Shown piece after piece: positions 10,377 to 25,361 of a stretch of DNA of 32,000 bases. The position numbers were made by a program, and so were the translations under genes. The DNA is from Candidatus Saccharimonadota bacterium. GTDB lineage: Bacteria; Patescibacteriota; Saccharimonadia; Saccharimonadales; Saccharimonadaceae. The notes beneath the pieces were generated by a model. That model saw only the letters and a program-made list of their open reading frames with translations, made no database searches and was not told the origin of the DNA. Location of the stretch: the NCBI RefSeq assembly GCF_025273655.1, contig NZ_CP045921.1, forward strand, positions 30,001-62,000, given 5' to 3'. Each line of letters opens with the position of its first letter. Positions within the stretch are counted from its first letter, which is position 1.

Positions 10377-10423
10377 CTACTGCCGAGTATAGCCATCTAT
10401 ATATGAGACCAGCGTGAGAAATG

Positions 10424-11221: not shown

Positions 11222-11272
11222 ATACATTTCATTGTAGCAGCGTGAATATGATAACATGATGAGGTACCTGCG

Positions 11273-11773
11273 CTATAAGACATGAACTTCTCCTCCATTG
11301 TGTCGTCGAGACAGATTTTTGGCTACTATGATAGTGAGAGATACGGCTATCGTTGCAGCAATCAGCCCGACGGCAATACCACCAAGAATGTCAGACCAGT
11401 GATGGACATGAGCAAATACGCGGGCAGCACCGATCAGAATAGCTACTGGAATCATCACTAGCCCCCACTTACGAGCATAGAAAAAGCTGATGAACGCCAG
11501 CGTCGTACCAAACGTCGTATGATCTGATGGAAAGCCGTTGTCCGGTGCGTGCGAAAACAGCGGCACAAGATGCTCACTCACAAATGGGCGTGGGTCGGTA
11601 ATTACTAGCCCCGCAAGCTTGGCGAGGATAAACGCGCAGATGCCACCGATCGCTAGTGATATGAAATACTTTTTGCGCTCACCGCTTGGCAAGCGAAAAA
11701 AGATGATCGCAGCGAGGAGTGGCAGCACAAAAAAGAGATACTGCGCTACAAAAACGATCAGCCCATCAATCAT
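11273..11773 (-). CDS. PAP2 superfamily phosphatase (BcrC/undecaprenyl-diphosphatase-like)
   Basis: PAP2 motifs ITDPRPF (KxxxxxxRP-like), FPSDHTT (PSGH) and ARVFAHVHHWSDILGG (SRxxxxxHxxxD). Confidence 0.8.
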   Translation of the reverse strand: MIDGLIVFVAQYLFFVLPLLAAIIFFRLPSGERKKYFISLAIGGICAFILAKLAGLVITDPRPFVSEHLVPLFSHAPDNGFPSDHTTFGTTLAFISFFYARKWGLVMIPVAILIGAARVFAHVHHWSDILGGIAVGLIAATIAVSLTIIVAKNLSRRHNGGEVHVL

Positions 11774-12386
11774 TAGTCACCTCCGTTGTCTTTGCGTGTT
11801 TGCGTTTTTGCAAATGGACGACGGCTGGAATAAAGGACACGACCATAACGACAATCACAACTGGCAAAATATAGTGATCCATATTCGGAATGATACGGCC
11901 AAGCGTATAGCCAAGCAGTGTCACCACCAAGCCCCACAGCGTACCGCCAAGCACGTTATAGGTCAGGAACTTTTTGTATGACAGTTTGCTCACACCAGCG
12001 ATTGTCGGTATGAACGTACGCACGATCGGCACAAACCGCGCAAAGATAATCGACTGCGCACCGTACTTTTCAAAGAACGCATGGGCTTCGTGCAGGTTCT
12101 TTTGCGAGAAAAAGCGTGAGTCCGGTCGCGTAAACAGTTTCGGTCCAACTTTTGAGCCGATAAAATAGCCGACGCTATCACCAACGATTGCCGCGACAAC
12201 AACGATCACTAGCGTCAGAAAGATATTGAGATGTCCTTGCGACGCAAGTATGCCAGCAGTAATCAGTAGTGTATCACCCGGCAAGAAAAAACCAGCTAGT
12301 AACCCCGATTCGGCAAACACAATCACGGCAAGCCCAACATAGCCAAATGTCAGCCAGTACACCGGGTCGAGTAAATTATGCAGCAC
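11766..12386 (-). CDS. DedA family membrane protein
   Basis: DedA signatures FAESGLLAGFFLPGDTLL and FARFVPIVRTFIPTIAGVSKLSYKKFLTYNVLGGTLWG. 8-nt overlap with the PAP2 gene. Confidence 0.85.
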   Translation of the reverse strand: MLHNLLDPVYWLTFGYVGLAVIVFAESGLLAGFFLPGDTLLITAGILASQGHLNIFLTLVIVVVAAIVGDSVGYFIGSKVGPKLFTRPDSRFFSQKNLHEAHAFFEKYGAQSIIFARFVPIVRTFIPTIAGVSKLSYKKFLTYNVLGGTLWGLVVTLLGYTLGRIIPNMDHYILPVVIVVMVVSFIPAVVHLQKRKHAKTTEVTND

Positions 12387-12478
12387 AGCAAATACTCCGT
12401 TTTCTTGATAGCAGACTGTTCATGTGGTTAGTATGCCTGATGCTAGATGGGATGAACGTGAGAATGTGACATAAAAAA

Positions 12479-12507
12479 TATGGCTTGCCGCTCCTTGCCA
12501 AGCCATA
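12479..12507 (-). terminator. Terminator-like hairpin (repeat copy R1) oriented leftward, upstream of dedA
   Basis: TATGGCTTG...CAAGCCATA, a 9-bp stem. On the minus strand it is followed by T6 and then CTCACGTTC. Confidence 0.5.
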
Positions 12508-12604
12508 CTCGCATGTTTATTTGACCCTCCTTTCTAGGAGTATACGAATGTATACACTCTCTAGTATGAACCTCCAAATGTGATACGAACGTGAGAGCAA
12601 AATA

Positions 12605-12634
12605 ATACGGCTTGGTCTCGCAGGCCAAGCCGTA
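12605..12634 (-). terminator. Terminator-like hairpin (repeat copy R2) oriented leftward
   Basis: ATACGGCTTGG-tctcgcag-CCAAGCCGTAT, an 11-bp stem. On the minus strand it is followed by ATTATTTTG and then CTCTCACGTTC. Confidence 0.5.
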
Positions 12635-12660
12635 TCTGTATACAGCACTATAACTATAGT

Positions 12661-12840
12661 TTTGTTAGTCGTTTGTTTCGGCGTCTTTTTGACCGCCTTG
12701 CCATTCTGTCTATTTTGACCATTTCGGGTGCAGTGGGAGCTGTCATTTGCGGTGGTCATAAGATCATAGCTGCTCTACGGGTATTTTTTGGTGGTACGAC
12801 AGCTATGGTAATTACTTACTTTATTGGCGCAAATGTCTAG
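12661..12840 (+). pseudogene. Possible remnant of the C-terminus of a VIT1/CCC1-family membrane protein
   Basis: The frame ending at TAG 12838-12840 reads ...LSILTISGAVGAVICGGHKIIAALRVFFGGTTAMVITYFIGANV. This resembles the last TM helices of VIT-family proteins. There is no ATG or RBS, and stops lie upstream at 12562 and 12592. Confidence 0.3.
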
Positions 12841-12884
12841 CTGATTGTAAGCAAACTGCAAGCCAGTTAGTATACAATAGTACT

Positions 12885-13568
12885 ATGCGCCTACTTGTCG
12901 TTGAAGATGAAGCCCGTATTGCTGAAGCTATAAAACGCGCCCTTGAACTGCATCACTATGCAGTCGATATTGTGCATGATGCAGATAGTGGTCTTACTGC
13001 TGCAGCCCATCCAGACTATGATATGGTCATTCTTGATCGCATGTTGCCTGGGAATAACGACGGTATTGGCATAGCCCAGGAATTACGTAACCAAGGTGTC
13101 GATACGCCGATCATTATGTTGACTGCACTAGGTGAAGTTGATGATCGGGTAGTCGGCTTGCAAGCCGGTGCTGATGACTATCTGCAGAAGCCGTTTGCCA
13201 TGAAAGAACTGATTGCTCGCGTACAAACACTGTTTCGTCGACCTCGCTACACACTTGGCACGACACTGAAAATCGATGACCTGCAATATGACCCTGTGAC
13301 ATTTCAAGCTACACGCAGCGGTAAGCAGCTGTCGCTCTCGAACAAGGAAATAAAATTGCTGGAGTATATGCTTTACAATCAGGGTCAAGTGATAAGCAAA
13401 GACAAGATTATCACTCATGTCTGGGACGAAGATGCGCTGATCGTGCCTAATACTGTCGAGGTATACATGGGCTATCTTCGCAAAAAGATAGACGCTAATT
13501 TCCCCGACAGGCCACCACTTATACATACGGTTCGAGGGTTTGGTTATCAGCTAGGAGTAATCGCCTAA
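12885..13568 (+). CDS. OmpR/PhoB-family response regulator (TCS-1)
   Basis: Receiver domain (MRLLVVEDE, DMVILDRMLPG, LTALGEVDDRV, KPF) plus winged-helix domain (LSNKEIKLLEYM ... VRGFGYQL). TACAAT lies 6 nt upstream of the ATG. Confidence 0.9.
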   Translation: MRLLVVEDEARIAEAIKRALELHHYAVDIVHDADSGLTAAAHPDYDMVILDRMLPGNNDGIGIAQELRNQGVDTPIIMLTALGEVDDRVVGLQAGADDYLQKPFAMKELIARVQTLFRRPRYTLGTTLKIDDLQYDPVTFQATRSGKQLSLSNKEIKLLEYMLYNQGQVISKDKIITHVWDEDALIVPNTVEVYMGYLRKKIDANFPDRPPLIHTVRGFGYQLGVIA

Positions 13569-14561
13569 ATGTTTAAATCGGCAACGGTCAAACTTACCCT
13601 TTGGTATGTGCTATTAGCGGCCACGCTTTGCCTTGCGTACAGTGTTGTCGTGTATCATCTTTCAACTGAAGAACTCGATGAGGCACTTAACCGGCAATAC
13701 AGCAGCCTCATATCAACCGATGATCATGACAACGATAATGTGCCGCCACCGTATGCTGCGATACAAGAACACAGCAAGCATCTGCTCGGTGAATTAGTCT
13801 GGTTCAATATCACTGTTATTGCTGGTTCATCCGTTTTCGGTTACTTTTTAGCTCGACGAACACTGCGGCCAATTGAACAGGCGCATACGGCACAAATTCG
13901 TTTTACCGCCGAGGCCAGCCATGAACTTCGCACACCACTAGCTGCGATACGCGCCGATACTGAAGTTGCGCTCATGGAGAAAGGCTTAACCGCTAAAGCA
14001 AGGCGTACATTGGAGGGTAACTTGCAAGATATTGGGCGGCTCGAACAACTGACAACAAACCTACTGGATATCGCTCGCTACCATAACGGCTCGGCACCAA
14101 AACTTGGCGTGCTTGATTTCGATGAGCTAACACGCCAAGCCATTAAGCAACTCACCCATAAAGCAGACGAGAAGCACATCACCCTCAAATCGACGATTAA
14201 GCCGGTTCAGGTCATGGGCGATCAACGTACTCTAGAGCAGCTCGTCATCATCTTTATCGATAATGCCATTAAATACAGTCACGAAAATACCACAGTTACT
14301 GTCTCACTCAAGGCTGATATGGCACATGCCGTACTTACCATTAAAGATAAAGGCGTTGGCATACCGGCCGATGATATTCCACATATCTTTGAGCATTTCT
14401 ATCGCTCGCAAAATACCAGTAGAACAAAGCACGTATCGGGCTACGGGCTTGGCTTGCCACTAGCCCAGGAAATCATCAGGGCGCATGGCGGTCAGGCGGA
14501 AATCGAGAGTCGGGAAAATCACGGCACAACCGTCACCGTAACATTGCCGACTGCACCATAA
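13569..14561 (+). CDS. Sensor histidine kinase (TCS-1), 2 TM, 330 aa
   Basis: H-box FTAEASHELRTPLAAI; N, G1 and G2 boxes (DNAIKYS, KDKGVGI, GYGLGL). The start abuts the RR stop (TAAATG). Confidence 0.9.
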   Translation: MFKSATVKLTLWYVLLAATLCLAYSVVVYHLSTEELDEALNRQYSSLISTDDHDNDNVPPPYAAIQEHSKHLLGELVWFNITVIAGSSVFGYFLARRTLRPIEQAHTAQIRFTAEASHELRTPLAAIRADTEVALMEKGLTAKARRTLEGNLQDIGRLEQLTTNLLDIARYHNGSAPKLGVLDFDELTRQAIKQLTHKADEKHITLKSTIKPVQVMGDQRTLEQLVIIFIDNAIKYSHENTTVTVSLKADMAHAVLTIKDKGVGIPADDIPHIFEHFYRSQNTSRTKHVSGYGLGLPLAQEIIRAHGGQAEIESRENHGTTVTVTLPTAP

Positions 14562-14607
14562 GCGGCCAGTAAGCAAACCTACAGGCTTAATTCGTATAGT
14601 TGTAGGT

Positions 14608-15162
14608 ATGAAGAAAGCATCTATTGGACTGGCTGTACTTGTAACACTTGTTGGTTATAGCCTATTCGTCCGTCACGAACAACCAAAGATTAGCGCACCC
14701 TCATCATTAACAGCGGATACCTCGAATAATAACAAGTCGAATACCACCAGCACGCCTCCTAGTGAGGAGAGTACAAGTAGCGGTAGTGGTGGCGATGATA
14801 CTACCTCAAGCGGCAACTCGCCATCATCTTCATCGTCAAGTAGCAGCCAAGGTTCAAGCCAGTCCAGCACGAGTACAGGAGCGTACAAGGACGGCTCATA
14901 CACAGGTAGCACCGAAGATGCTTACTACGGCAACGTACAAGTAAAAGCTACGATTTCAGGTGGCAAGCTTACCAGTGTCGCGTTCTTAGATTACCCTCAC
15001 ACACACTCAACATCGGTCTACATTAACCAACAGGCTATGCCATACCTCCAGCAAGAGGCTATTAAAGCGCAGAGTGCAAACGTCAATATCATAAGTGGTG
15101 CAACGTACACCAGTCAGGCATTCATACAGTCACTCAGCAATGCACTGTCTCAGGCATCGTAA
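14608..15162 (+). CDS. Membrane-anchored extracytoplasmic FMN-binding domain protein (ApbE substrate-type)
   Basis: N-terminal TM anchor, Ser/Thr-rich linker and FMN_bind-like domain (YKDGSYTGSTEDAYYGNVQVKATISGGKLTSV). Flavinylation-type motif NIISGATYTS with Thr codon at 15103-15105. Confidence 0.8.
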   Translation: MKKASIGLAVLVTLVGYSLFVRHEQPKISAPSSLTADTSNNNKSNTTSTPPSEESTSSGSGGDDTTSSGNSPSSSSSSSSQGSSQSSTSTGAYKDGSYTGSTEDAYYGNVQVKATISGGKLTSVAFLDYPHTHSTSVYINQQAMPYLQQEAIKAQSANVNIISGATYTSQAFIQSLSNALSQAS

Positions 15163-15168
15163 GGCCTC

Positions 15169-15906
15169 ATGAAACAAACAAAAATCATCATGGGCATGCC
15201 AATTACTGTTGAGATTACGGACTCGGAAGATACACAGCTACTTGCTGACACCTTTGCTTTTTTCAATAAGGTAGATCGTCGCTACAGTACCTACAAAGAC
15301 GACAGTGAAATTACTCAGATCAATAACGGTATGCCGCGCAGCGATTGGAGTCCTGAAATGCAGGAAATCATGCAGCTCTGTGAGGAAACAAAGCAAGAAA
15401 CTGACGGCTATTTTGATATCAAACATGACGGCAAACTTGACCCGTCTGGCCTCGTCAAGGGCTGGTCTATTTGGGAAGCAGCCAAGCAGTTAGAAAAGCG
15501 TGGCCTCCGCAACTTTTACATTGAAGCCGGGGGCGATATTCAAGCCCAAGGCGTGAATAGTGAGCATGAGCCATGGACTGTCGGCATTCGCAATCCGTTT
15601 AATACAGATGAGATTATCAAGACACTGCATATGCATAACTGTGGTGTTGCAACATCAGGCACGTACATTCGTGGACAGCATATCTATAATCCACACCAGC
15701 CAGAAGAAGCCCCACACGGCGTGCAGAGCCTCACGGTTGTTGCGGCAAATGTCTACGAAGCCGATCGCTTTGCCACGGCTGCATTTGCAATGGGCATGAA
15801 CGGCATAGCGTTCATCGAGCAGCGCGACGGGCTTGAGGGTTACCTCGTAGATAACAATGGCATGGCCACCTATACGAGCGGCTTCAAGGAGTACGTACAT
15901 GCTTAA
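15169..15906 (+). CDS. apbE: FAD:protein FMN transferase (ApbE family)
   Basis: IMGMPITVEI, FNKVDRRYSTYKDDSEITQIN, DPSGLVKGW, IEAGGDI and VATSGTY, typical of ApbE. Confidence 0.85.
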   Translation: MKQTKIIMGMPITVEITDSEDTQLLADTFAFFNKVDRRYSTYKDDSEITQINNGMPRSDWSPEMQEIMQLCEETKQETDGYFDIKHDGKLDPSGLVKGWSIWEAAKQLEKRGLRNFYIEAGGDIQAQGVNSEHEPWTVGIRNPFNTDEIIKTLHMHNCGVATSGTYIRGQHIYNPHQPEEAPHGVQSLTVVAANVYEADRFATAAFAMGMNGIAFIEQRDGLEGYLVDNNGMATYTSGFKEYVHA

Positions 15907-17425
15907 AAGCATTGATGATTTTCTCAATAAGACGACCATGTATCGTCTGCTTATTTACTACCTAGGTGGACTGCTGGGCATCGCATTTGTCGTCAGTCTA
16001 TTTGGAAATCTCGGATTCAGTCCGGTTGCTCTATTGGTATCCACCGCGATTCTACTAGCCGCCTGTTGGGGCATCAACCGTGTCTTTGCATATGTGTTTC
16101 ATGTACCGATGAACCACGAGTCATCGATCATTACGGCACTCATTTTGGCGCTGCTCATTACGCCAAAACTTGGCCAGTATGACCTCTTGTTCTTACTCGC
16201 TGCCTCTGGCCTTGCTATGGCATCGAAGTACGTCCTGACCATACGTGATGTGCATATCTTCAATCCAGCGGCAATTGCTGTCGTCCTCACCGCGATCGGG
16301 CCACGGCAAGATGCAAGTTGGTGGGTCGGCACGGCTACCATGCTACCATTCGTTTTAGTCGGCGGCTTCTTGGTAGTACGCAAGATCAGGCGCGAAGCAA
16401 TGGTAATTGGTTTTCTGCTATCAACATTTATTGCAACAGCAGTCTTTACCATACTGAGCCACGGTGATGCGCTAACAGCACTCAAACAAGCAGCCCTGAC
16501 TTCGCCAGTGTTCTTCTTAGCGTTCGTGATGCTAACCGAGCCACTAACTTCGCCAGGTACGAAAGACAAACAAACGTGGTTCGGCATATTAGTCGGCCTC
16601 CTCGTACCACCGCAAGTACATATTTTTAGCTTCTATACATCACCAGAAATTGCCTTAGTCATCGGCAACGTATTCGCCTATATCGTGAATCCACGCGTTC
16701 GAGTTTTCCCAGTACTGACGCAAAAACTTAGGATTGCAGCCAATAGTGTCGATTTTGTCTTTAATTCTGACAAGAAACTCTCATATCGGCCGGGGCAATA
16801 CATGGAGTGGACGTTGCCGCATACTGGCATCGATAGCCGTGGTAATCGCCGTTACTTCACACTGGCATCATCACCAACGGAAGCAACACTACGGCTCGGC
16901 ATTAAGTTCTACGAACCAAGTAGCAGCTACAAGAAAGCAATGCTCGATATGACTGACAAGACGCAAATCGTGGCCGCCCAAGTTGCCGGTGATTTTGTCC
17001 TACCGCTTAGCAAAAAACAGAAGCTAGTTTTTATCGCCGGTGGTATTGGGGTCACACCATTCCGTAGCATGGTGAAATACCTGATCGATAAAAATGAACA
17101 ACGCGATGTAAAGGTGCTGTACGCCGCCAATAACTTACAGGACATTGCCTACGGTGATGTCTTTGAGCAAGCAAGACAACAACTGAATATTGCAACGACC
17201 TATGTGCTGGCGAAGCCTGATCAGAGCCAAAATCCAGCACCAAATACACGTGTCGGATATGTGGACGCAGCCGCAATCCAAGCGACCGTACCCGATTATC
17301 GCAGCCGCATATTCTACATTTCAGGCAGTCATCAAATGGTTGTCAGCGTGCAAGGCGCTTTGCTAGGTCTTGGCGTACCCCGTGGCCATATTAAGACGGA
17401 TTACTTCCCTGGATATGATGTATAG
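15899..17425 (+). CDS. Fusion protein: RnfD/NqrB-like polytopic membrane domain plus C-terminal FNR-like FAD/NAD(P)H oxidoreductase domain
   Basis: Membrane-domain motifs HIFNPAAIAVV and FVMLTEPLTSP. Reductase motifs RRYFTLAS (RxYS/T) and LVFIAGGIGVTPFRSM. The ATG at 15899 overlaps the apbE stop (ATGCTTAA). Confidence 0.75.
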   Translation: MLKSIDDFLNKTTMYRLLIYYLGGLLGIAFVVSLFGNLGFSPVALLVSTAILLAACWGINRVFAYVFHVPMNHESSIITALILALLITPKLGQYDLLFLLAASGLAMASKYVLTIRDVHIFNPAAIAVVLTAIGPRQDASWWVGTATMLPFVLVGGFLVVRKIRREAMVIGFLLSTFIATAVFTILSHGDALTALKQAALTSPVFFLAFVMLTEPLTSPGTKDKQTWFGILVGLLVPPQVHIFSFYTSPEIALVIGNVFAYIVNPRVRVFPVLTQKLRIAANSVDFVFNSDKKLSYRPGQYMEWTLPHTGIDSRGNRRYFTLASSPTEATLRLGIKFYEPSSSYKKAMLDMTDKTQIVAAQVAGDFVLPLSKKQKLVFIAGGIGVTPFRSMVKYLIDKNEQRDVKVLYAANNLQDIAYGDVFEQARQQLNIATTYVLAKPDQSQNPAPNTRVGYVDAAAIQATVPDYRSRIFYISGSHQMVVSVQGALLGLGVPRGHIKTDYFPGYDV

Positions 17426-17518
17426 ATATTAGTATAAAAAGCCCTGTATGAAACAAACGTGAGATTAAAATAGGAACTTATCACGCACCTCTCATCTTTC
17501 ATTGAGTACAATAGGAGT

Positions 17519-18190
17519 ATGCAATTATTATTGGTTGAAGATCAGAAACGTCTGGCAGGGCTGCTCAAGCGCTCGCTCATCGAAGATGGCTATGCGGTAG
17601 ATATCGCCTCAGACGGTCAAGAAGCAATCGACAAGTTTGATATCAACAATTACGATCTCATCATTTTAGATATAATGTTGCCAATCAAAGACGGCATAGA
17701 GGTTTGCCAAGAAATACGACGTTCCAATACGGACATTCCAATTCTCATGCTGACCGCACTCGATGGTGTTGATGATCGCATCAAAGGGCTGGATAGCGGT
17801 GCTGACGATTATCTCGTTAAGCCATTTTCAGACGGTGAATTGTCGGCACGGGTGCGGGCGCTCCTCCGACGTAGTGGTAACGGTCGCCCGACTATCCTGA
17901 TTATCGGCGAGCTGGTGTTAAATCCAGCGACAAAGAGCGTGACATACAAAGGCACTCTGTTGCCGCTAACCGCCAAAGAATATACGCTGCTAAGCTACTT
18001 CATGTATCATGCGGGCGAATTGCTTTCAAAGAACGATCTCTTAGAGCATGTCTGGGATATGAATTATGATGGCTTGTCGAACGTGGTAGAAACCTATGTA
18101 CGATATCTCCGTAAACGCCTGCGTGATGTTGATAGTAGCAAGGAACTTATCACAACCGTCCGCAATCTGGGCTACAGGTTAGACGCATGA
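17519..18190 (+). CDS. OmpR/PhoB-family response regulator (TCS-2)
   Basis: MQLLLVEDQ, DLIILDIMLP, LTALDGVDDRI and KPF, plus winged helix (LTAKEYTLLSYF ... VRNLGYRL). TACAAT lies 6 nt upstream of the ATG. Confidence 0.9.
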   Translation: MQLLLVEDQKRLAGLLKRSLIEDGYAVDIASDGQEAIDKFDINNYDLIILDIMLPIKDGIEVCQEIRRSNTDIPILMLTALDGVDDRIKGLDSGADDYLVKPFSDGELSARVRALLRRSGNGRPTILIIGELVLNPATKSVTYKGTLLPLTAKEYTLLSYFMYHAGELLSKNDLLEHVWDMNYDGLSNVVETYVRYLRKRLRDVDSSKELITTVRNLGYRLDA

Positions 18191-19179
18191 ACGGACTCAA
18201 GCAAACCACTCTCCGATTGACCATCCAATACTCGTTGATCTTTTTTGCCTTTGTATGGTTATTCAGTGGTGGTATCTATCTTTGGGTAAATAATTCACTT
18301 GGCGAGGGCTATGTCAATCGCATCAACAATGCGCTTGAGCAGCAGCATAGCACCACAAAACACCCGGTCGAGTTGTCCGATAGTGATGCGGCAGTGGCGG
18401 CAGATATTACGCTCGACAAGCTCCGTGACATACTCATCACGGTCAACACGGTCGCCTTGGTAGTTATCCCACTTGCCGCATACTACATCTCGCGTCGCAC
18501 GCTAAAACCTCTTGTCGAGAGTCAGAAATCGCAGCAACGTTTTGTTGCCAATGCCTCGCACGAACTCCGCACACCGCTGGCGGTGATGCTGGCTGATCTT
18601 GATTGGGCGGCCAAGAAGCCGCGCAGTGCCGACGAATACAAAACCACAATCTACAATACCCGCGAAGAAGTGAAACAAATGACCACGCTCGTCACCAGTC
18701 TTTTGCTACTGGCGCGACTCAATGACACGATGACGATCAAGAAACAAGCCGTGTCACTCAGTGATGCGGTACTAAGCGCCATAAAGTACTACGACCACGC
18801 AGCACAGGCGCGGCACATTTCGTTCAAAACAGCACTTGAAACCGATGAAATAGGAGGTGACACCGAACTTATTGGTATTGTTCTGCGCAACCTTGTCGAT
18901 AATGCAGTGAAGTATGCCAATGAACGCACGACCGTTGAGATTAGCAGCGAAACGGCAGGCAAAAAAGCCCGCGTGACTGTCCGCAATACCGCCGACGAGT
19001 TTGATGCAAGCAAACTCACGCACCTGTTTGATCGGTTCTACCAAAGCGACGAACATCAAGGTGGCGAAGGTTTTGGTCTAGGACTGGCGATTGCCCAGCA
19101 AATCGTTGAAGCACATGGCGGGCAGATTGAAGCACGCACACTTGGCGAGCATACAATCGAGATTAGTTTTGTACTGTAG
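18187..19179 (+). CDS. Sensor histidine kinase (TCS-2), 2 TM, 330 aa
   Basis: H-box FVANASHELRTPLAVM; DNAVKYA; GFGLGLAIAQQIVEAHGG. ATGA overlap with the RR stop. Confidence 0.9.
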   Translation: MNGLKQTTLRLTIQYSLIFFAFVWLFSGGIYLWVNNSLGEGYVNRINNALEQQHSTTKHPVELSDSDAAVAADITLDKLRDILITVNTVALVVIPLAAYYISRRTLKPLVESQKSQQRFVANASHELRTPLAVMLADLDWAAKKPRSADEYKTTIYNTREEVKQMTTLVTSLLLLARLNDTMTIKKQAVSLSDAVLSAIKYYDHAAQARHISFKTALETDEIGGDTELIGIVLRNLVDNAVKYANERTTVEISSETAGKKARVTVRNTADEFDASKLTHLFDRFYQSDEHQGGEGFGLGLAIAQQIVEAHGGQIEARTLGEHTIEISFVL

Positions 19180-19187
19180 GAAGCAAT

Positions 19188-19245
19188 GCTATTTTTCTTT
19201 CAGAAAAATAGCCAACTCCCCAAACGGCAAGCCGTTTACGGAGTT
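19188..19245. terminator. Two adjacent hairpins between convergent genes
   Basis: GCTATTTTTC-tttca-GAAAAATAGC at 19188-19212. AACTCC..AAACGGC-aa-GCCGTTT..GGAGTT at 19214-19245. Confidence 0.6.
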
Positions 19246-19255
19246 AGGTAAATAG

Positions 19256-20071
19256 TCACAGGCTCATACGCCCAGAATCTTCATCGTCATCATCTATCTT
19301 CTGCCATAGTTTAGCTGTGCCAGTGGTTTTATCGAGCTGCTCCCTCGTCACTGTCGCAAATGTTACCTCGTCAGTAATATATTTTTCGTCGAGCGCTCTT
19401 TTGATCTGTCCCATGAGTTTCTTCTGCGTCTTGGCGTCCTGACACACGGCGAGAACAGTTGGTAAAGCATACTCATCGGTTGGCCACTCTCCCTCTTCAG
19501 CGTAAGTGATATAATTACGGGCTTTCCGCACACTCACAAAGAAGGGCGTCGTGTCATCCCAGATATCAAGAAAGTAGCGACGAGGCGCTTCTTGCCTTGT
19601 TTTGGGCTTGAAGCTCAGGAAGAGATCAGGCTTCCAGGTTGGAAAGTAGCTATAGGCTACCATGGAGCTTTTGGTAAATAGACGGAGCTTGTCGCCATAT
19701 AGGGCTTGTAACTGCAACGCTATATCAGCCACGTTCAGACAATGTGCGATAAAGTCCGGCGACACGGTTTTGTTTTTGTAGAGGGCTTTTATAGCCCACT
19801 CGTTCGTACTATCGGGTGGTAATGTCCTAGCTCCTTTGGGTGTCAAAAAGTATTCTGCGGCACGTCCTGCAAGCTTGTATGATGGCTGGTAACGCTTGCT
19901 AATATAGCCTTGTTCTTCCAGTATTTGCAGCTTGTTTTGTATAGCTTTATGGCTCGGTTTACCTAGATGCTTAGCTATTTGTTTACTGGTACTGAATCGA
20001 GATTTATAGAGCCAATTTAATACTGCTAATTGTTCGGAGTTTAAGGGTCTATGGTATTTGGCTACAGTCAT
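19256..20071 (-). CDS. Replication-relaxation-like winged-helix protein (mobile-element associated)
   Basis: N-terminal wHTH LNSEQLAVLNWLYKSRFSTSKQIAKHLG...LQILEEQGYISKRY, followed by FIAHCLNVADIALQL. The resemblance to the Replic_Relax family is judged from memory only. ATG at 20071. Confidence 0.45.
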   Translation of the reverse strand: MTVAKYHRPLNSEQLAVLNWLYKSRFSTSKQIAKHLGKPSHKAIQNKLQILEEQGYISKRYQPSYKLAGRAAEYFLTPKGARTLPPDSTNEWAIKALYKNKTVSPDFIAHCLNVADIALQLQALYGDKLRLFTKSSMVAYSYFPTWKPDLFLSFKPKTRQEAPRRYFLDIWDDTTPFFVSVRKARNYITYAEEGEWPTDEYALPTVLAVCQDAKTQKKLMGQIKRALDEKYITDEVTFATVTREQLDKTTGTAKLWQKIDDDDEDSGRMSL

Positions 20072-20182
20072 ACTAATCGTCAATCACTTTCTTCTTTATA
20101 TTTATATATAAAAAGAGAGGAAAAAGAAAGAGAAAAAACAGATAGAAAAGAGTTTTATAGCTTGGGTATCGGTAACTAATTT

Positions 20183-21127
20183 TTAAGAACGCTTGCGAGT
20201 GAGGTTTTTATACATGAGGCGCTTGCCGTAGATGTTATCAAACCAAGCCTCAAAACGCTCGCCGTCAGTCAGTTCACGTGTGTTCCAGCGGAAACTATAC
20301 TCGTCACAATAAAGCTGCAAATGCTTGGCGCTGACATGGTGGTAAATGCCATTGATACCGCGCTTTAAGTGCGACCAAAAACTCTCTGCGGTGTTCGTAC
20401 TAGCCATACCGTTTACAAACTCTTTGACGCCGTGATTGACGCTTTCGTGCTTGAAACCAAGTTTAGGCAACGTGCGATATGGCATGTGTTCGTCTGTGTA
20501 GATCGTCGCGTCAATGTCGATGTTTTTGCGTGCCAAGTTCATGAGCGTATTGCTGCCAGTATCTTTTGTAGCAATCGCGCGTAGTCTGCCGCCGCGTTCA
20601 ACCATACCAACAACGGGCGCTTTACTATTCTTGCTGCCGTGACCTTGTGCGCCCTTGCCGGTGAGGGTCTTGAGCTTCTTACTATGGTGTTTGTTCTTAT
20701 CAGAGCCGCCTATATACGCCTCATCCATTTCAACCTCGCCAGTGAGCTTTTCAAAGCTGCCTGTTTCAAATACATGTCGTATACGCTGGAGCATAAACCA
20801 CGCGGTCTTTTGGGTAACGCCAATATACCGACTAAGCTGAAGCGACGATATACCTTTTTTGAGGCTTGTACATAGGTAGATAGCCAAGAACCATTTTTGT
20901 AGTGGCACGGGGCTATCTTCAAAGATACTGCCTATACGCACCGTAAACGGACTACGGCAGCTTGCGCATTTTAGACGGCCTGTTTTTAGTTTGTATACTT
21001 TGACGCCTATTTCGCCACATTTTGGGCATGTAACGCCGTTTGACCAGCGCTGCTCAAACAAGAACTTTTGACACTGTTCTTCTGTGGCAAATGAGTTGTA
21101 GAATTGAATGAGGTTGAATGCTTCCAT
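20183..21127 (-). CDS. IS1595-family (ISXO2-like) DDE transposase
   Basis: N-terminal transposase zinc ribbon (CPKCGE...CASCRSPFTVRIGSIFEDSPVPLQKWFLAIYL). DDE-domain region with EMDEAYIGG and YTDEHMPY. Confidence 0.85.
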   Translation of the reverse strand: MEAFNLIQFYNSFATEEQCQKFLFEQRWSNGVTCPKCGEIGVKVYKLKTGRLKCASCRSPFTVRIGSIFEDSPVPLQKWFLAIYLCTSLKKGISSLQLSRYIGVTQKTAWFMLQRIRHVFETGSFEKLTGEVEMDEAYIGGSDKNKHHSKKLKTLTGKGAQGHGSKNSKAPVVGMVERGGRLRAIATKDTGSNTLMNLARKNIDIDATIYTDEHMPYRTLPKLGFKHESVNHGVKEFVNGMASTNTAESFWSHLKRGINGIYHHVSAKHLQLYCDEYSFRWNTRELTDGERFEAWFDNIYGKRLMYKNLTRKRS

Positions 21128-21133
21128 ACCTCT

Positions 21134-21162
21134 ATTGTATCAGGGGTGATTGGTAACGTCAA
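21134..21162 (-). promoter_or_regulatory. Transposase promoter TTGACG-17nt-TACAAT, with the ATG 6 nt after the -10 (leaderless)
   Basis: -35 at 21157-21162, -10 at 21134-21139, ATG at 21125-21127 on the minus strand. Confidence 0.6.
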
Positions 21163-21200
21163 GTATATAATTGCCTAAGATTATGTCACAATAGTACTAC

Positions 21201-21680
21201 ATGCGGGAGAGTCCCCATGTGAGGCACGAGAGGTGTAAGATGGGACACAAAATAAGTGTTGATGCACAGCGCAGTGATATGCAGTTTGAAGCTGCAAATA
21301 CTAGTTGTCGCCGTGCGGTCTTGGGGTTTATTGCTGCAAGACTTGCTCACGCACAAGGTGTGGGTGATTCACCGGATCCAATTCCCGTCACGGTGTATAG
21401 TCGCAACGACGAGCTGTGTGAAGGTTGGTATCTCGTCTGGGTAGGGTTGACCGGTGCGGAGACGGTCTGTGTGTTGGCGCAAGATCTCGACACTGAGACG
21501 GAGGACATCCGTGCGATTTCTGTCACGGTCGATCTTTCGGTCGACGATTATGCCACCACGGATAGCTTTGAAGTAGTCACCACTGGCATGCGGGAAGGCG
21601 ACGATACCCCAACATTCTGGGCGTTCGTACAGAGTACGATCGCTCTGCAGTGGAGTGAGGGCATCTACTTTGCCCACTAG
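21201..21680 (+). CDS. Hypothetical acidic protein (alternative start at 21240)
   Basis: 159-aa ORF with no recognisable family. The ATG at 21201 follows CACAAT by 8 nt. The ATG at 21240 follows GAGAGGTG. Confidence 0.4.
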   Translation: MRESPHVRHERCKMGHKISVDAQRSDMQFEAANTSCRRAVLGFIAARLAHAQGVGDSPDPIPVTVYSRNDELCEGWYLVWVGLTGAETVCVLAQDLDTETEDIRAISVTVDLSVDDYATTDSFEVVTTGMREGDDTPTFWAFVQSTIALQWSEGIYFAH

Positions 21681-21712
21681 CAGGAGGGGGTAGCGCCCTT
21701 CCCTCGTGCCCT

Positions 21713-21766
21713 ATGCGTCGATAACTGCCTAGTTATCCTGACGAGTCCTGGTAGGACGAAACGCAT
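21713..21766 (+). ncRNA. Type III hammerhead self-cleaving ribozyme
   Basis: Parse: ATGCGT-C(17)/GATAACT-gcct-AGTTATC-CTGACGA-GTCC-tggta-GGAC-GAA-ACGCAT. All core nucleotides are present: CUGANGA, G10.1-C11.1, GAA, A15.1-U16.1 and a GUC cleavage triplet. Helices are 7 bp (I), 4 bp (II) and 6 bp (III), all Watson-Crick. Confidence 0.85.
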
Positions 21767-21767
21767 T

Positions 21768-22223
21768 ATGAGTATCAACATCATCACAATCGGCAAAAAA
21801 CACGAACCCTGGATCACTGAGGGCCTGGATCGCTATCAGAAGCGCCTCCAGAAGCCTTATGACGTGAAATGGGTCTTGTTGCCGCATAGTAGTCTGGAGG
21901 GCACACAGGCGCGTCAAGAAGAGTCGGAGCGTATCGTGCAAAAGCTTGGCAAAGCTGAGTACGTGGTGTTGCTAGACGAAATTGGCAAAAACTTATCGTC
22001 GCCGGAGCTAGGTGCTATGCTTGATACTCAGTTTGGTCGGGGTAGCGTTACGCTTGTCATCGGAGGTGCTTACGGTGTTACACGCGAGCTGCAGCAACGT
22101 GCCGATCTGGTGTGGTCGCTGTCGCGCCTGGTGTTTCCGCATCAGCTTGTGCGGCTACTGCTCATCGAGCAACTCTACAGGGCTCAGGAAATACAAAAAG
22201 GTGGCAAATACCACCATATCTAG
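21768..22223 (+). CDS. rlmH: 23S rRNA (pseudouridine1915-N3)-methyltransferase RlmH (SPOUT family)
   Basis: MSINIITIGKK...YQKRL..., VLLDEIGKNLSS, LVIGGAYGV and LSRLVFPHQLVRLLLIEQLYRA, typical of RlmH. Confidence 0.9.
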   Translation: MSINIITIGKKHEPWITEGLDRYQKRLQKPYDVKWVLLPHSSLEGTQARQEESERIVQKLGKAEYVVLLDEIGKNLSSPELGAMLDTQFGRGSVTLVIGGAYGVTRELQQRADLVWSLSRLVFPHQLVRLLLIEQLYRAQEIQKGGKYHHI

Positions 22224-22493: not shown

Positions 22494-22820
22494 ATGCAGT
22501 ACATCACACAACCTATTCTTGGACTTCTCGCACTCAGCACACTACTGGGAGTTTGCGTGCATGACATGCATATCGACAAAGCCATGGTACACGCCATCTC
22601 TCAGGCACATGCTGGCGATAGTGGTAACAGTAGTGATGGCGGCAAGGTGTCGGTGAGTTCTAATGCTCATACGCATAGCGAGAAGGTGTCATATAGCAAT
22701 CACGCCCGTGCTGCGACAGCTCGTGACCCACGCCAAGACAAGGCTAAGCACCATAGTCAATCCGACTACTATCGTTTACCCGGCGGCTCGGATATCGATC
22801 ACACGCTCGTACTAGCGTAG
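22494..22820 (+). CDS. Hypothetical small secreted His/Ser-rich protein
   Basis: 108 aa. Signal-like N-terminus ILGLLALSTLLGVCV. No family recognised. The 3' end overlaps the valS 3' end by 9 nt. Confidence 0.4.
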   Translation: MQYITQPILGLLALSTLLGVCVHDMHIDKAMVHAISQAHAGDSGNSSDGGKVSVSSNAHTHSEKVSYSNHARAATARDPRQDKAKHHSQSDYYRLPGGSDIDHTLVLA

Positions 22821-25361
22821 TACGTCGAGTTCTTCCTGGAGCCGTACGATGAGTATGGCGGTCGCTTCGATTTCGTGTTTAGTTTCTTCTACCAAATGTG
22901 CCGGTGCTTTGGCGACGTAGTTTTCGTTGGCGAGGCGGGCTTCGAGCGCGGCAGCTTTCTGGCGTGTCTCGGCTAGGCGCACTTCCAGGTTTGTCTGGTG
23001 CTCGTACAGGGTGTCGGCATCGATATCCAGCCAGGCCTCGCGACCAGAACTTGCCAGGCGCAGTCCCCTGGCTTGGTCGACATGGGCTACATCGCTCACA
23101 CGCGATAGCTGTTTGATCAAGGCGGCGTTTTCTTCTACGAGTGTGTCTTGCTGGAATAGGAGTGGATAACGCTTGTTGCCGGGGAGCTCACTCATCACAT
23201 AGCGGGCTTCAGACACCAGTGCTTGTACTCGAGTGAATTCACCTGCAGCAATCTCGTCGTGGTCGATCGCCTCTGGCCAATGTTCGAGTATGAGGACGCT
23301 GTCGGTCCACGGGAGCGTCTGCCAGACGGTCTCGGTCACAAATGGTGCAAATGGATGTGCGATACGCAGCGATGTCTCGAGTACCCATGCCAAGAGGTCT
23401 GGGTTGGTGTCGGCTTTGCTAGCTTCGACATACCAGTCGGCTACGCTATCCCAGATGGTGTGGTAGACGGTTTCGCCTGCGTCGGCGAAGCGGTAGCCGG
23501 CAATTTGCTGATCTATCTCGGTACTAGCCTGGAGTAGTTCGGCGACGATCCAGTGGTCGGCTAAGCTCTTCGGCGCCGGTGCACCAGGTGTGTAGTCTTC
23601 GCCTAGACGATCGAGTATGAAGCGAGAGATATTCCAGAGTTTATTGCAGAAATTGCGTCCCGCCAGTACTTTGCTAGTAGAAAACGCTTGGTTCTGCCCT
23701 GCCCCGCGACTAGAGATGAGCCCTAGGCGGAGTGCGTCGGAGCCGTATTTGGCAAGTGTTTCCATGGGGTTGACGACGTTGCCTTTGCTTTTGCTCATTT
23801 TTTGCCCATGTTCGTCGAGCACGAGGCCGTGGAGGTATACATCGCGAAACGGTACCTTGTCGGTAGCATAGAGACCGAGCATGATCATACGAGCGACCCA
23901 CTGGTAGAGGATATCGTGGCCTGTTTCGAGTACAGAGGTAGGGTAGTATTTAGCAAGTTCCCCACCGTCTAGGTAATCGGTAGTGATGAACGGCCACTGA
24001 CCGGAGCTAAACCATGTGTCGAAGGTATCTTCTTCTCTGGTATATGTTGTGCCATTTACTACGATTTCTTTTTCTTCGACCCGCTCGTCAAAGATCCAGT
24101 CCTCGGGATCATTGATGTTTACAAAAGCCGGAATAGGGATACCCCAGGGGATTTGGCGCGAGATGTTCCAGTCCTTGAGATTCTTGTAGTATTGCAGCAC
24201 GGCGGATTTGCGTGTCTCTGGATAAAATGTAATCTCCCCTGCCTCGATGGTAGTCACAGCCTTCTCTACGAGTGGCTTGACGTTGACGAACCACTGCTCT
24301 TTGATGAGCGGCTGGATGGGTAGGCCACTTTTGTAGTCGTAGCCTACGGAGTGTTCGATTGTCTCTTCGCCACGACGGAGCTCTTGGGCTTCTAGGGCTG
24401 CGAGTACGCGTTTACGGGCTTCGTCTACCTCAAGCCCGGCATAGTTGCCGGCGGCGGCTGTCATCTTGCCGTCAAAACCGATGACCTGAATGCGCTCGAG
24501 ATCGTGGCGATTACCCATCTCGAAGTCGTTGGGGTCGTGGGCTGGAGTGATTTTCACCACGCCAGTGCCATATGCAGGATCTACGTAGTCGTCGGCGATG
24601 ACGGGTATTTCACGATCTGTCAGCGGTAGCTGTACCTTGCTGCCGATGAGATGTTTGTAGCGTTCGTCGTCTGGATGTACTGCTACGGCGGTATCGCCGA
24701 GCAATGTCTCCGGGCGGGTTGTCGCCACGACTAGCTCCCCTACCTTGTCGATCAGCGGGTAGGCGATCTTCCAGAGCGTACCCTTTTCTGTCTTGTGGTC
24801 GACCTCGATATCGGCGTAGCTGGTCTGGTATTTGGTGCTGTAGTTGACGATACGCTCACCTCTGTAGATTAGGCCTTCATCCCACATCTTCTTGAATGTT
24901 TTGTAGACGGTGTCGATGACCTTTTTGTCGAGAGTAAACGTGAGATTGCTCCAGTCGGCACTGGCGCCAAGAGCGCGGAGTTGTAGCTCCATGTTGCCGC
25001 GCTGCTCATCGACGAAGTTCCAGACCTGACTATAGAGCTGTTCCCTACTGAAATCGAAGCGACTCTGCCCTTTCTCGCGCAGGATGCGTTCGTAGACTAC
25101 CCATGTCTCGAAGCCGGCATGGTCTGCTCCAGGCAGATACACCGTATCATAGCCTTTCATACGGTGATAGCGGATCAGGATATCTTCTACCTCTACCATG
25201 AGCGCGTGACCGACATGCAGGTTGCCGTTGGCATTTGGCGGGGGCATGACGATACTATAGGGTTCGCCTGTGCCTCGAGGTGAAAAAGCGCCAGAGGTCT
25301 CCCACATGGCGTAAATATTTGGTTCGTACTGATCCGGTTCGTATGTTTTGGCTAGCTGCAT
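22812..25361 (-). CDS. valS: Valine--tRNA ligase
   Basis: 849 aa. HIGH motif PPPNANGNLHVGHAL, KMSKS motif KMSKSKGN, and a C-terminal coiled coil. Confidence 0.97.
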   Translation of the reverse strand: MQLAKTYEPDQYEPNIYAMWETSGAFSPRGTGEPYSIVMPPPNANGNLHVGHALMVEVEDILIRYHRMKGYDTVYLPGADHAGFETWVVYERILREKGQSRFDFSREQLYSQVWNFVDEQRGNMELQLRALGASADWSNLTFTLDKKVIDTVYKTFKKMWDEGLIYRGERIVNYSTKYQTSYADIEVDHKTEKGTLWKIAYPLIDKVGELVVATTRPETLLGDTAVAVHPDDERYKHLIGSKVQLPLTDREIPVIADDYVDPAYGTGVVKITPAHDPNDFEMGNRHDLERIQVIGFDGKMTAAAGNYAGLEVDEARKRVLAALEAQELRRGEETIEHSVGYDYKSGLPIQPLIKEQWFVNVKPLVEKAVTTIEAGEITFYPETRKSAVLQYYKNLKDWNISRQIPWGIPIPAFVNINDPEDWIFDERVEEKEIVVNGTTYTREEDTFDTWFSSGQWPFITTDYLDGGELAKYYPTSVLETGHDILYQWVARMIMLGLYATDKVPFRDVYLHGLVLDEHGQKMSKSKGNVVNPMETLAKYGSDALRLGLISSRGAGQNQAFSTSKVLAGRNFCNKLWNISRFILDRLGEDYTPGAPAPKSLADHWIVAELLQASTEIDQQIAGYRFADAGETVYHTIWDSVADWYVEASKADTNPDLLAWVLETSLRIAHPFAPFVTETVWQTLPWTDSVLILEHWPEAIDHDEIAAGEFTRVQALVSEARYVMSELPGNKRYPLLFQQDTLVEENAALIKQLSRVSDVAHVDQARGLRLASSGREAWLDIDADTLYEHQTNLEVRLAETRQKAAALEARLANENYVAKAPAHLVEETKHEIEATAILIVRLQEELDVLR

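Follow-up and report, generated by a model that had tools for sequence, protein, structure and literature searches.

Why does a hammerhead ribozyme lie directly in front of rlmH, a housekeeping gene, in the 32,000-nucleotide stretch of Saccharibacteria DNA analyzed here (the window)? The initial annotation described a complete type III hammerhead with predicted cleavage at 21719/21720, and our results indicate that this is a real motif that is under purifying selection and has undergone compensatory changes. By direct reading of the + strand, all core nucleotides and 17 Watson-Crick pairs (6 + 7 + 4) are present from 21713 to 21766, laid out as ATGCGT (from 21713), C (21719), GATAACT, GCCT, AGTTATC, CTGACGA, GTCC, TGGTA, GGAC, GAA, and ACGCAT (to 21766), after which a single T precedes the rlmH ATG at 21768. 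The parts are given below, with relatives cited by their L numbers.

21713 to 21718, + strand: 5' arm of stem III, AUGCGU; 7/7 lineages retain the inner 4 bp, and the outer 2 bp vary.
21719, + strand: C17, with predicted cleavage at 21719/21720; position invariant in 7/7 lineages.
21720 to 21737, + strand: stem I, GAUAACU/AGUUAUC, with loop GCCU; 95.9% of cells paired (7 lineages), double changes at 3 pairs.
21738 to 21744, + strand: catalytic core CUGACGA (C3 to A9); invariant in 7/7 lineages save N7 (C or U).
21745 to 21757, + strand: stem II, GUCC/GGAC, with loop UGGUA; 96.4% of cells paired, C-G changed to U-A in L087.
21758 to 21766, + strand: core G12 A13 A14, then the 3' arm of stem III, ACGCAU; from direct reading, the Rfam alignment, and lineage comparison.
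21768 to 22223, + strand: rlmH, 23S rRNA pseudouridine-1915 N3-methyltransferase; Pfam SPOUT_MTase E 1.6e-45, identical protein so named by NCBI.

The core comprises C3 U4 G5 A6 N7 G8 A9, G12 A13 A14, the pairs A15.1-U16.1 and G10.1-C11.1, and C17. Three helices surround the junction, loops close stems I and II, and stem III is open, as in type III hammerheads; the cleavage site is a GUC triplet in which C17 (21719) provides H17 and not G. Judged by its sequence, the segment from 21713 to 21766 looks like a functional type III hammerhead.

In a local scan, the Rfam family RF00008 (Hammerhead_3) aligns over positions 1-54/54 of its model to 21712-21767 (+) with 41.1 bits and an E value of 4.7e-08, corresponding to 8.2e-06 for a window-wide scan of both strands with all 4227 families, which returned no second hammerhead-like match at E < 1 in the 32 kb. 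The family has a gathering score of 48.5, which 41.1 bits does not reach, so the default scan left the hammerhead unlisted and routine annotation would miss it. The hammerheads of relatives align at full length with 37.0-43.0 bits, and all lineages are below 48.5. The initial annotation had named a score under this threshold as a reason to abandon the motif, and such a score was indeed obtained; conservation and covariation outweigh it. The gathering threshold is an annotation cut-off and no biochemical definition, and the E values stay significant (8e-6 for the window). The locus thus shows genuine Patescibacteria hammerheads concealed by Rfam gathering thresholds.

The ribozyme is kept in six further lineages, five of which (L039/40, L041, L042, L087, and L089-91) were reached through rlmH protein homology alone, independently of the RNA. 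Among the 7 distinct hammerhead sequences, the core CUGA(C/U)GA and GAA is invariant (7/7), 90.8% of cells are paired, and compensatory double-sided changes occur at 7/17 pairs in all three stems. None of 500 shuffles reached the observed pairing and covariation, and slid registers were 30-48% paired. The pairs U21718-A21761 and G21745-C21757 (alignment pairs 6-51 and 33-47) are unchanged in 7/7 sequences, and an inner C-G pair of stem III is replaced by U-A in L087 and L089. In the comparison of rlmH upstream regions that the initial annotation had proposed, substitutions in relatives compensate in stems I-III. Hammerhead DNA identity is 72-90%, versus 48-61% at third codon positions of rlmH. 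By these comparisons, the hammerhead is evolutionarily conserved and under purifying selection. The copy in L089-91 is weakened: its stem II has only 3 bp, and stem I contains an A.C mismatch. In 4/7 lineages, the outer pairs of stem III, those adjoining the ATG, are broken.

Two aspects of the fold deserve comment. Stem lengths of 7 bp (I) and 4 bp (II) place loops I and II side by side, and the complementarity noted earlier between GCC of loop I and GGU of loop II is present in the window, but as a Watson-Crick contact it is not kept and shows no covariation in relatives (loop I/loop II in the 7 sequences: GCCU/UGGUA, AUCU/UUUCGGA, AGUG/UAGGA, AUAU/UAAGA, GCGU/GAAA, GAAU/AAAA, and GAGU/AAAA). 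Unconstrained folding, of the single sequence and of the alignment, favors a 4-bp helix between CGUC (16.3-17) and GAYG (G5-G8) over stem III, so that an inactive conformer may compete.

The initial annotation treated the hammerhead as a feature of rlmH. Its distribution instead places it in a small, lineage-specific gene cassette, inserted between a HIT-family gene and rlmH in the Saccharibacteria subclade around Ca. Mycosynbacter amalyticus. Hammerhead and an orphan ORF of ~146 aa co-occur strictly, both being present in 6 lineages and both missing in 5 (L037/38, L044/45, L046, L088, and L043). We found no hammerhead at rlmH in five closer lineages without the upstream ORF, nor at 29 further rlmH loci (≤65% identity). 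In L043, the ORF is deleted and a decayed 3' remnant of the hammerhead is fused to the cassette promoter, and in L080 a related hairpin-linker-hammerhead module lies 3' of a different gene, with the downstream gene convergent. The ORFs upstream of the hammerhead in L080 and L087 showed no detectable homology to that of the window. Since HIT and rlmH abut or overlap in nearly all distant Saccharibacteria, the cassette is the derived state. The locus occurs once, in conserved synteny, and its divergence parallels that of rlmH; its native neighbors are HIT, rlmH, and valS, and the native arrangement contains no phage or integrase genes. No IMG/VR contig matches the lineage-specific pattern, which recovers all clade members.

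The distance of about 530 nt to IS1595 noted at the outset came out as 538 nt, counted from 21175, where the IS1595-bearing element ends, to the start of the hammerhead. The element that holds the transposase is 14,418 bp long and has inverted repeats together with an 8-bp duplication. We rule out a link to the hammerhead and regard the association as coincidental, because strains that are 98-99.9% identical lack the whole 14.4-kb element and carry the identical hammerhead.

In order, the cassette consists of promoter, 5' hairpin, Shine-Dalgarno (SD) region, orphan 146-aa ORF, G+C-rich 3' hairpin, conserved linker, and hammerhead. Its parts upstream of the ribozyme are as follows.

6738 to 6743, + strand: -35 box TTTACA of the predicted cassette promoter, directly after the HIT stop codon; identified by conservation.
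21184 to 21192, + strand: extended -10 box TGT CACAAT of the predicted promoter; TGn and a -10-like hexamer in five lineages.
21199 to 21220, + strand: predicted 5'-terminal hairpin ACAUG.GGGA...UCCC.CAUGU; minimum-free-energy folding yields it in all five lineages.
21223 to 21233, + strand: SD region GGCACGAGAGG, 5' arm of the predicted fold-back helix; complementary to 21700-21710.
21240 to 21680, + strand: orphan ORF, 146 aa, fast-evolving; SD GAGGTG with a 4-nt spacer.
21683 to 21702, + strand: G+C-rich 3' hairpin GGAGGGG/CCCUUCC after the ORF stop; U-tract absent.
21700 to 21710, + strand: conserved linker UCCCUCGUGCC, anti-SD 3' arm of the predicted fold-back helix; overlaps the 3' hairpin by 3 nt.

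The predicted promoter is contiguous in L031-L033 (TTTACA-17 nt-TGTCACAAT) and conserved in L040, L041, L042, L089, and L043. In the window strain, a transposon-like insertion puts 14.4 kb between the -35 and -10 boxes, so that promoter strength is uncertain there. Transcription would start at about 21199-21201. A 159-aa reading from the ATG at 21201 was rejected, its frame being broken in L042 and its ATG absent in L089; because this frame is not conserved, the stretch from 21201 on is read as 5' UTR and the ATG at 21240 as the ORF start. The 146-aa ORF had no family match in Pfam, PHROG, or PADLOC. Only 3 homologs were found among 5.8 billion proteins, and a profile search gave 4 matches among 1.84 billion representatives. 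Syntenic copies are 72%, 59%, and 28% identical, the L089 copy matching the family HMM at E 2e-10, and the AlphaFold model has a mean pLDDT of 45.5. A PADLOC match to HamA (E 0.005), seen with a single ORF homolog only, was disregarded.

Is the hammerhead transcribed together with both genes? Every relative has a hairpin of different sequence at the position of the 3' hairpin. As an intrinsic terminator, 21683-21702 was rejected: it lacks a U-tract, and the terminator scan makes no call. A promoter scan recognized no promoter in the 87 nt from the ORF stop to the rlmH ATG. Given no promoter-like site and a hairpin without a U-tract, any transcription of rlmH implies transcription of the hammerhead. 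The hammerhead most likely cuts a shared ORF-rlmH transcript in two, in keeping with the earlier proposal that the predicted cut would detach the upstream ORF transcript from rlmH.

A second conserved element bears on the fate of the upstream product. In 5/5 lineages, the linker is complementary to the SD region of the ORF itself ~490 nt upstream; the SD-region arm is always 488-502 nt upstream of the hammerhead, and the linker ends 9 nt 5' of the predicted cleavage site. Over the five lineages, 96.4% of cells in the two arms are paired, with 3 double (compensatory) changes, all in L089. Partition functions give a pairing probability of ~1.0 in L040, L041, L042, and L089 and of ~0.49 in the window, where the helix is imperfect (8 bp, mismatch, 2 bp). 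Compared with mononucleotide-shuffled tails, the duplex energy is no better and not significant, because both arms are G/C-rich purine or pyrimidine tracts; support is drawn from register-specific complementarity, covariation (one lineage), and whole-mRNA partition functions. No comparable long-range complement was seen in ~29 other hammerhead hits, and apparent fold-backs in L086 and L071 were repeated palindromic hairpins instead. We also discarded pairing of the linker CUCGU with ACGAG of the ribozyme core as a switch, which has just 5 bp and is lost in L080. The complementarity between SD region and linker suggests a fold-back mRNA whose end is defined by the ribozyme.

The hammerhead probably generates the 3' end of the cassette mRNA and sets rlmH free as a separate mRNA. 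From the motif, its conservation and covariation, its co-occurrence with the ORF, and the complementarity, we infer that the site is transcribed and cut in vivo, with effects on stability and translation, in the following steps. Transcription from the cassette promoter, probably with read-through from HIT, would pass the hairpin lacking a U-tract into rlmH. The hammerhead would then fold and cut between C21719 and G21720. Hammerhead cleavage leaves a 2',3'-cyclic phosphate on the upstream RNA and a 5'-OH on the downstream RNA. The upstream product would be the ORF mRNA, with its 2',3'-cyclic phosphate end 9 nt past the linker, and folding of the linker back onto the SD region would hold the two ends of the mRNA together and restrict re-initiation. 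On the downstream side, the product would be an independent rlmH mRNA with its 5'-OH right at the base of stem I, in which the start-codon region would be unpaired once the short stem III strand has departed.

More tentatively, the cassette might be a self-limiting, ribozyme-finished mRNA, in which the 3' end made by the predicted cut, 9 nt past the anti-SD, folds ~490 nt back onto the mRNA's own SD while the same cut frees rlmH as an independent message. If so, the orphan protein would be made only co-transcriptionally before the anti-SD emerges, or once a trigger opens the helix, and a chromosomal bacterial hammerhead would have a concrete biological role.

Alternatively, as first proposed, the hammerhead could be a 5' leader of rlmH whose cleavage frees an SD-less start codon, so that rlmH translation needs self-cleavage. 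At every rlmH-linked locus, the hammerhead ends ≤14 nt from the rlmH start, and the cassette broke an ancestral translational coupling to HIT. In the predicted post-cleavage leader, stems I and II are kept and GAAACGCAUU-AUG is unpaired, and the beginning of the rlmH coding region has less structure than shuffled sequences (z = +1.1). Ribozyme-dependent translation initiation has a precedent in eukaryotic viruses (bioRxiv 10.1101/2024.05.16.594327). The stated lack of an SD was borne out: there is just AGGA 11 nt upstream, within stem II, and a usable SD is missing from rlmH across these genomes. This is not unusual, however, because about half of the genes in the window, as in the genome, likewise lack one. 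The placement 1 nt before the rlmH ATG, true in the window, is not a conserved spacing: at rlmH-linked loci, the start codon lies 3, 3, 6, 12, 13, and 14 nt from the conserved ACGC/ACAC, and the broken outer pairs of stem III in 4/7 lineages are those adjoining the ATG. L043 keeps rlmH despite a lost ribozyme core, and L080 carries the same hammerhead lineage without a co-directional downstream gene. We thus regard a leader function as unlikely to explain the locus; it is compatible with release of a separate rlmH mRNA, as a secondary benefit.

Could the hammerhead instead have no present function, having come with the ORF on mobile or phage-derived DNA and persisting because there has been too little time for its loss? 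Cassette presence is polymorphic, and a link to prophage or mobile DNA is frequent among bacterial hammerheads (PMC3088659); L089-91 carry a seemingly weakened copy, and L043 shows that decay occurs. We nevertheless consider this improbable given the excess of ribozyme identity over that at the neighboring gene's synonymous sites, the finding that changes fall mainly in loops or are compensatory, the invariance of the core while the flanking ORF drops to 28% protein identity, and the absence of this hammerhead lineage from viral contigs in IMG/VR. Finally, it is most improbable that the SD/linker complementarity is a DNA feature, in which the two arms would be inverted repeats at the ends of a small mobile cassette and the hammerhead would lie beside the right end. 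In favor of this view, 10-12-bp inverted repeats ~480 bp apart flank the ORF, and comparison with related genomes shows the cassette to be an indel. However, the repeats are off the indel boundaries: promoter and 5' hairpin lie outside on the left and the hammerhead on the right, yet all are missing together from cassette-less genomes. The L043 deletion spares the promoter, the single-copy syntenic locus has diverged at the pace of rlmH, and in every lineage the left repeat coincides exactly with the SD, at 6 nt from the start codon. In L089, pairing survives through compensatory changes, and the ORF is too small and too variable for a transposase.

As a natural experiment, the locus is unusually clean: the hammerhead is conserved, its three-gene context is defined and non-phage, and close relatives have the cassette, lack it, or retain a deletion relic. 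The bacterium that carries the locus, Ca. Mycosynbacter amalyticus, is ultra-small, parasitic, and cultivable, and is grown with its host Gordonia amarae (PMC11880426). Because the organism is cocultured with its host and contrasting relatives are available, cleavage, mRNA half-lives, and translation of both cistrons are directly measurable. The locus is thus a tractable case for the open question of bacterial hammerhead function and points to a possible, testable connection between ribozyme cleavage and translational control by 5'-3' fold-back.

Among known systems, the closest are other type III hammerheads (RF00008, clan CL00010; PMC3088659), with which the window motif shares the junction, the open stem III, and an identical core. 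Hammerheads of bacteria and phages also lie between co-directional genes, with a proposed role in converting polycistronic RNA into single-gene mRNAs (PMC3088659), and where bacterial hammerheads flank single genes, such cutting of polycistronic RNA has been put forward as their role (PMC3088659; PMC6765202). Unlike those examples, the window hammerhead is single-copy, sits in a chromosomal housekeeping neighborhood, and is tied to one orphan ORF on one side only. Clustering of the prophage type (Perreault et al. 2011) was not observed, there being one ribozyme in 32 kb and none upstream of the ORF; L086 (IMG/VR), by contrast, is of the clustered type, with four hammerheads. The initial annotation knew of no hammerheads in this kind of genome, and in the literature searched we likewise found no report from Saccharibacteria or Patescibacteria.

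According to a 2019 review, glmS is the only well-understood bacterial self-cleaving ribozyme, and the roles of the others are "largely elusive" (PMC6765202). As in glmS, a self-cleaving RNA in a bacterial mRNA is predicted here to alter the fate of the downstream coding RNA. The glmS ribozyme, by contrast, has an unrelated fold and a metabolite cofactor and is always in the glmS 5' UTR, whereas the window hammerhead shows no hint of ligand dependence. Insulators of the RiboJ type are synthetic, sTRSV-derived hammerheads placed upstream of a gene. Like these, the hammerhead just 5' of rlmH is predicted to strip upstream context and leave a fixed 5'-OH end starting in a hairpin; unlike these, it is natural, has no added SD-exposing downstream hairpin, and precedes an SD-less gene, and the upstream fragment would itself be a functional mRNA.

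In the hok mRNA of the type I toxin-antitoxin system hok/sok, the 5' tac element pairs with the 3' fbi element in fold-back inhibition. Similarly, the 3'-terminal element of the cassette mRNA is predicted to pair with its own 5' initiation region, giving a closed, silent molecule. Unlike in hok, this 3' end would be made by a ribozyme and not by a terminator, and the 146-aa ORF has no recognizable toxin features. The cassette falls outside the hok family but may act like hok-type fold-back mRNAs; if so, it would be the first natural hammerhead to define a bacterial mRNA 3' end for hok-like fold-back control.

Direct reading of the window recovers, letter for letter, the type III hammerhead described in the initial annotation:

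21713-21718, + strand: stem III 5' arm, ATGCGT
21719, + strand: C17
then, + strand: stem I (GATAACT-GCCT-AGTTATC), core CTGACGA, and stem II (GTCC-TGGTA-GGAC)
to 21766, + strand: core GAA and stem III 3' arm, ACGCAT

A single T separates its end (21766) from the ATG of a 151-amino acid ORF, which matches SPOUT_MTase/RlmH (Pfam, E 1.6e-45); the identical protein is named RlmH of Candidatus Mycosynbacter amalyticus in an NCBI record. A default Rfam scan of the window listed two tRNAs only and not the hammerhead. With permissive filters, RF00008 (Hammerhead_3) covers 21712-21767 (+), model positions 1-54 of 54, at 41.1 bits, with E values of 4.7e-08 in a local scan and 8.2e-06 for the whole window (both strands, all 4227 families), and no other ribozyme-like match was found among these families on either strand. 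The covariance match is full length and significant, but it scores below the curated gathering score of 48.5, so that standard annotation would miss it. Relatives likewise give full-length Hammerhead_3 matches of 37-43 bits, every member of this hammerhead lineage scoring under the Rfam threshold.

At 29 rlmH loci of representative genomes (Saccharibacteria MAGs and some Actinobacteria, identity at most 65%), the hammerhead was absent according to a descriptor search and a lineage-specific covariance model. For closer relatives, a large protein collection supplied rlmH proteins of 73-84% identity, and the DNA surrounding their genes was examined. An ORF of about 139-158 amino acids, a G+C-rich hairpin, a conserved linker, and the hammerhead precede rlmH in five distinct lineages (L039/40, L041, L042, L087, and L089-91), and one further relative, L080, came from a metagenome pattern scan. 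Five other lineages lack this arrangement. The HIT-family gene adjoins or overlaps rlmH in L037/38, L044/45, and L088, and the spacer between them is 25 nt in L046 and 71 nt in L043. The L043 spacer retains the cassette promoter fused to a decayed ribozyme 3' remnant ("...GAGGATGAAACGCTACTAATTATG") in which the CUGANGA core is not present:

L043, 2029-2099: deletion relic directly before rlmH, promoter TTTACA-17-TGTCATAAT joined to the hammerhead's final ~20 nt (GAGGATGAAACGCTAC); ORF and ribozyme core gone

Compensatory changes in stems I-III, proposed earlier as a check, were found among the seven distinct sequences. This result is not circular, because it was the rlmH protein that led to five of the six relatives. 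The core is invariant except at N7, 90.8% of cells are paired, and 7 of 17 pairs show double-sided changes, for example, G-C to A-U, A-U to G-C, and C-G to A-U in stem I, and C-G to U-A in both stem II and stem III. None of 500 shuffles matched the observed pairing values, and slid registers gave 30-48% paired. Identity to the window copy is 72-90% for the hammerhead, compared to 48-61% at rlmH third codon positions in the same comparisons and as little as 28% for the orphan ORF protein, a signature of purifying selection on RNA structure. We consider it very likely that the hammerhead is genuine and under selection.

When the 54 nt were folded thermodynamically on their own, the centroid structure was the hammerhead. 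In the minimum-free-energy structure, stem I is instead extended by a CGUC/GACG pairing, and both RNAfold and unconstrained RNAalifold favored this helix, which involves C17 and core G5-G8, over stem III:

21716-21719 with 21740-21743, + strand: alternative CGUC/GAYG helix

It can form in all seven lineages and may be a competing inactive conformer. Its changes are one-sided only, compared to changes on both sides of stem III pair 4-53, and the preference could be an artifact of nearest-neighbor models blind to hammerhead tertiary structure.

The surroundings of the ribozyme include the following features:

6342-6737: HIT-family gene
6750-6757 and 21176-21183: 8-bp duplication TAAGATTA, flanking the segment missing from L031-L033
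6758-6781 and 21152-21175: imperfect 24-bp inverted repeats bounding that segment
19256-20083, - strand: relaxase-like gene
20183-21127, - strand: IS1595 transposase
21201/21240-21680, + strand: ORF without any family (orphan ORF), then hammerhead and rlmH
22812-25361, - strand: valS, convergent

Contigs 98-100% identical to the window were retrieved by exact rlmH protein look-ups. The hammerhead is identical in all of them, and they are therefore uninformative on covariation. Three (L031-L033) lack 6758-21175 and have the HIT-family gene 76 nt upstream of the orphan ORF. This 14,418-bp segment, absent from strains 98-99.9% identical, is a strain-specific transposon-like insertion to which the IS1595 gene belongs, and the proximity of IS1595 to the ribozyme noted in the initial annotation reflects no connection. 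The insertion interrupts the cassette promoter within the spacer that separates its -35 and -10 boxes, and leaves the TGn extended -10 box intact. It carries the IS1595 transposase at one end and, as cargo, an ABC-2 transporter, DUF347, PAP2, DedA/VTT, two two-component systems, an NQR-like oxidoreductase, and a Replic_Relax protein, a cargo of unusual extent for an IS1595-family element.

The suggestion that the hammerhead is an rlmH leader holds only in part. Hammerhead and orphan ORF are jointly present or jointly absent in every lineage examined. Conserved stem III lies at no fixed distance from the rlmH start (3, 3, 6, 12, 13, and 14 nt), and in four of seven lineages the outer two stem III pairs beside the ATG are disrupted. 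L080 has a closely related hairpin-linker-hammerhead module after a different ORF, facing the 3' end of a convergent glycosylase-like gene, and cannot be a leader for this reason. L043 shows that after deletion of the ORF the ribozyme decays while rlmH persists. Thus, the most fitting description of the ribozyme is a module at the 3' terminus of the cassette, with any benefit for translation of rlmH being secondary. Distant Saccharibacteria nearly all have HIT and rlmH adjoining or overlapping (gap -11 to +12 nt); the cassette is therefore a derived insertion, which broke an ancestral HIT-rlmH junction that was probably translationally coupled. Many unrelated environmental type III hammerheads likewise have a strong hairpin directly upstream. 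Viral contig L086 (IMG/VR UViG_3300008262_000065; 3948-6197) contains four type III hammerheads within 2.3 kb, each following an almost identical palindromic hairpin (GGTGTCTTyAAAGACACy), the classic arrangement of ribozymes flanking single genes (see also L056 and L068).

The absence of a Shine-Dalgarno (SD) sequence at rlmH is real, but it is nothing special in this genome, where several genes look leaderless. About half of 34 ORF starts examined in the window lack an SD-like motif, and in many genes without one a TAnAAT-like box precedes the ATG by 7-10 nt (e.g., starts 6342, 12885, 17519, and 20183), which suggests that leaderless mRNAs are widespread in this Saccharibacterium. Actinobacterial RlmH proteins (L001-L003, L009, L010, L012, and L016; Nesterenkonia, Citricoccus, Leucobacter) are 58-64% identical to this RlmH, a similarity on a par with that of RlmH from other Saccharibacteria. 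Their contexts differ, with no HIT gene upstream, and the similarity may reflect gene transfer between Saccharibacteria and actinobacterial hosts. Other features of the window are:

2147-2231, + strand: tRNA gene, long variable arm, 85 nt, Rfam 60.5 bits
3177-3266, + strand: tRNA gene, long variable arm, 90 nt, Rfam 53.9 bits; also near the HIT gene in L037 and L044
22494-22820, + strand: 108-amino acid ORF overlapping the 3' end of convergent valS by 9 nt; no Pfam, PHROG, or PADLOC family

Among relatives whose sequence covers the position of the 108-amino acid ORF (L030-L033, L037-L046, and L087-L091), nearly all have a gene of 78-120 amino acids called there, about 40 to 550 nt from rlmH.

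Immediately downstream of the HIT stop, boxes resembling TTTACA-17 nt-TGnCACAAT are common to five lineages, as is a ~40-nt 5' UTR in which a small terminal hairpin accompanies the SD region GGCACGAGAGG. The conserved linker between 3' hairpin and hammerhead, CCUCUCGUGCC, is the reverse complement of this SD region, which lies consistently 488-502 nt upstream. Complementarity is perfect over 12 nt in L040 and L042, 10 nt in L041, and 9 nt in L089, where RNAduplex lengthens the pairing to 14 bp by bulging out one nucleotide; in the window, 8 nt are followed by a mismatch and two more pairs. When the two elements were aligned, 96.4% of cells were paired, compared to 38-69% in slid registers, with double-sided changes at three pairs, all in L089. 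The predicted mRNA, about 520 nt between its transcription start and the cleavage site, was also folded whole by partition function; in four lineages this fold-back helix had a probability of about 1.0, and for the window the value was about 0.49. Compared with shuffled tails, the duplex energy gave no significant difference, since both arms are rich in G and C, and about 29 other hammerhead matches contained no similar complement. We judge the helix to be probable.

Between the ORF stop and rlmH there is no recognizable promoter, and the hairpin has no U-tract; therefore, transcription of rlmH must pass through the ribozyme. A self-inflicted cut at 21719/21720 would split the transcript into an ORF mRNA with both ends structured, presumably ending in a 2',3'-cyclic phosphate just past the anti-SD linker, and an rlmH mRNA whose 5'-OH end lies at the base of stem I and whose start region is predicted to be unpaired. 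Cleavage, the transcript ends, and effects on expression are all inferences. A role in forming the 3' end of the cassette transcript and splitting the operon appears somewhat favored, and control through the fold-back helix is a more doubtful proposal. The locus is of interest for its clean context, with natural presence, absence, and relic variants, for its cultivable host-parasite system, and for a possible coupling of ribozyme cleavage to SD sequestration.

A literature search turned up no publication that connects hammerheads with Saccharibacteria or Patescibacteria; the hammerhead is an additional member of an already known ribozyme class. Bacterial hammerheads have been suggested to process polycistronic RNAs into units differing in stability or translatability (PMC3088659; PMC6765202). 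The mechanism proposed here agrees with this general suggestion and adds to it a specific, testable fold-back element.
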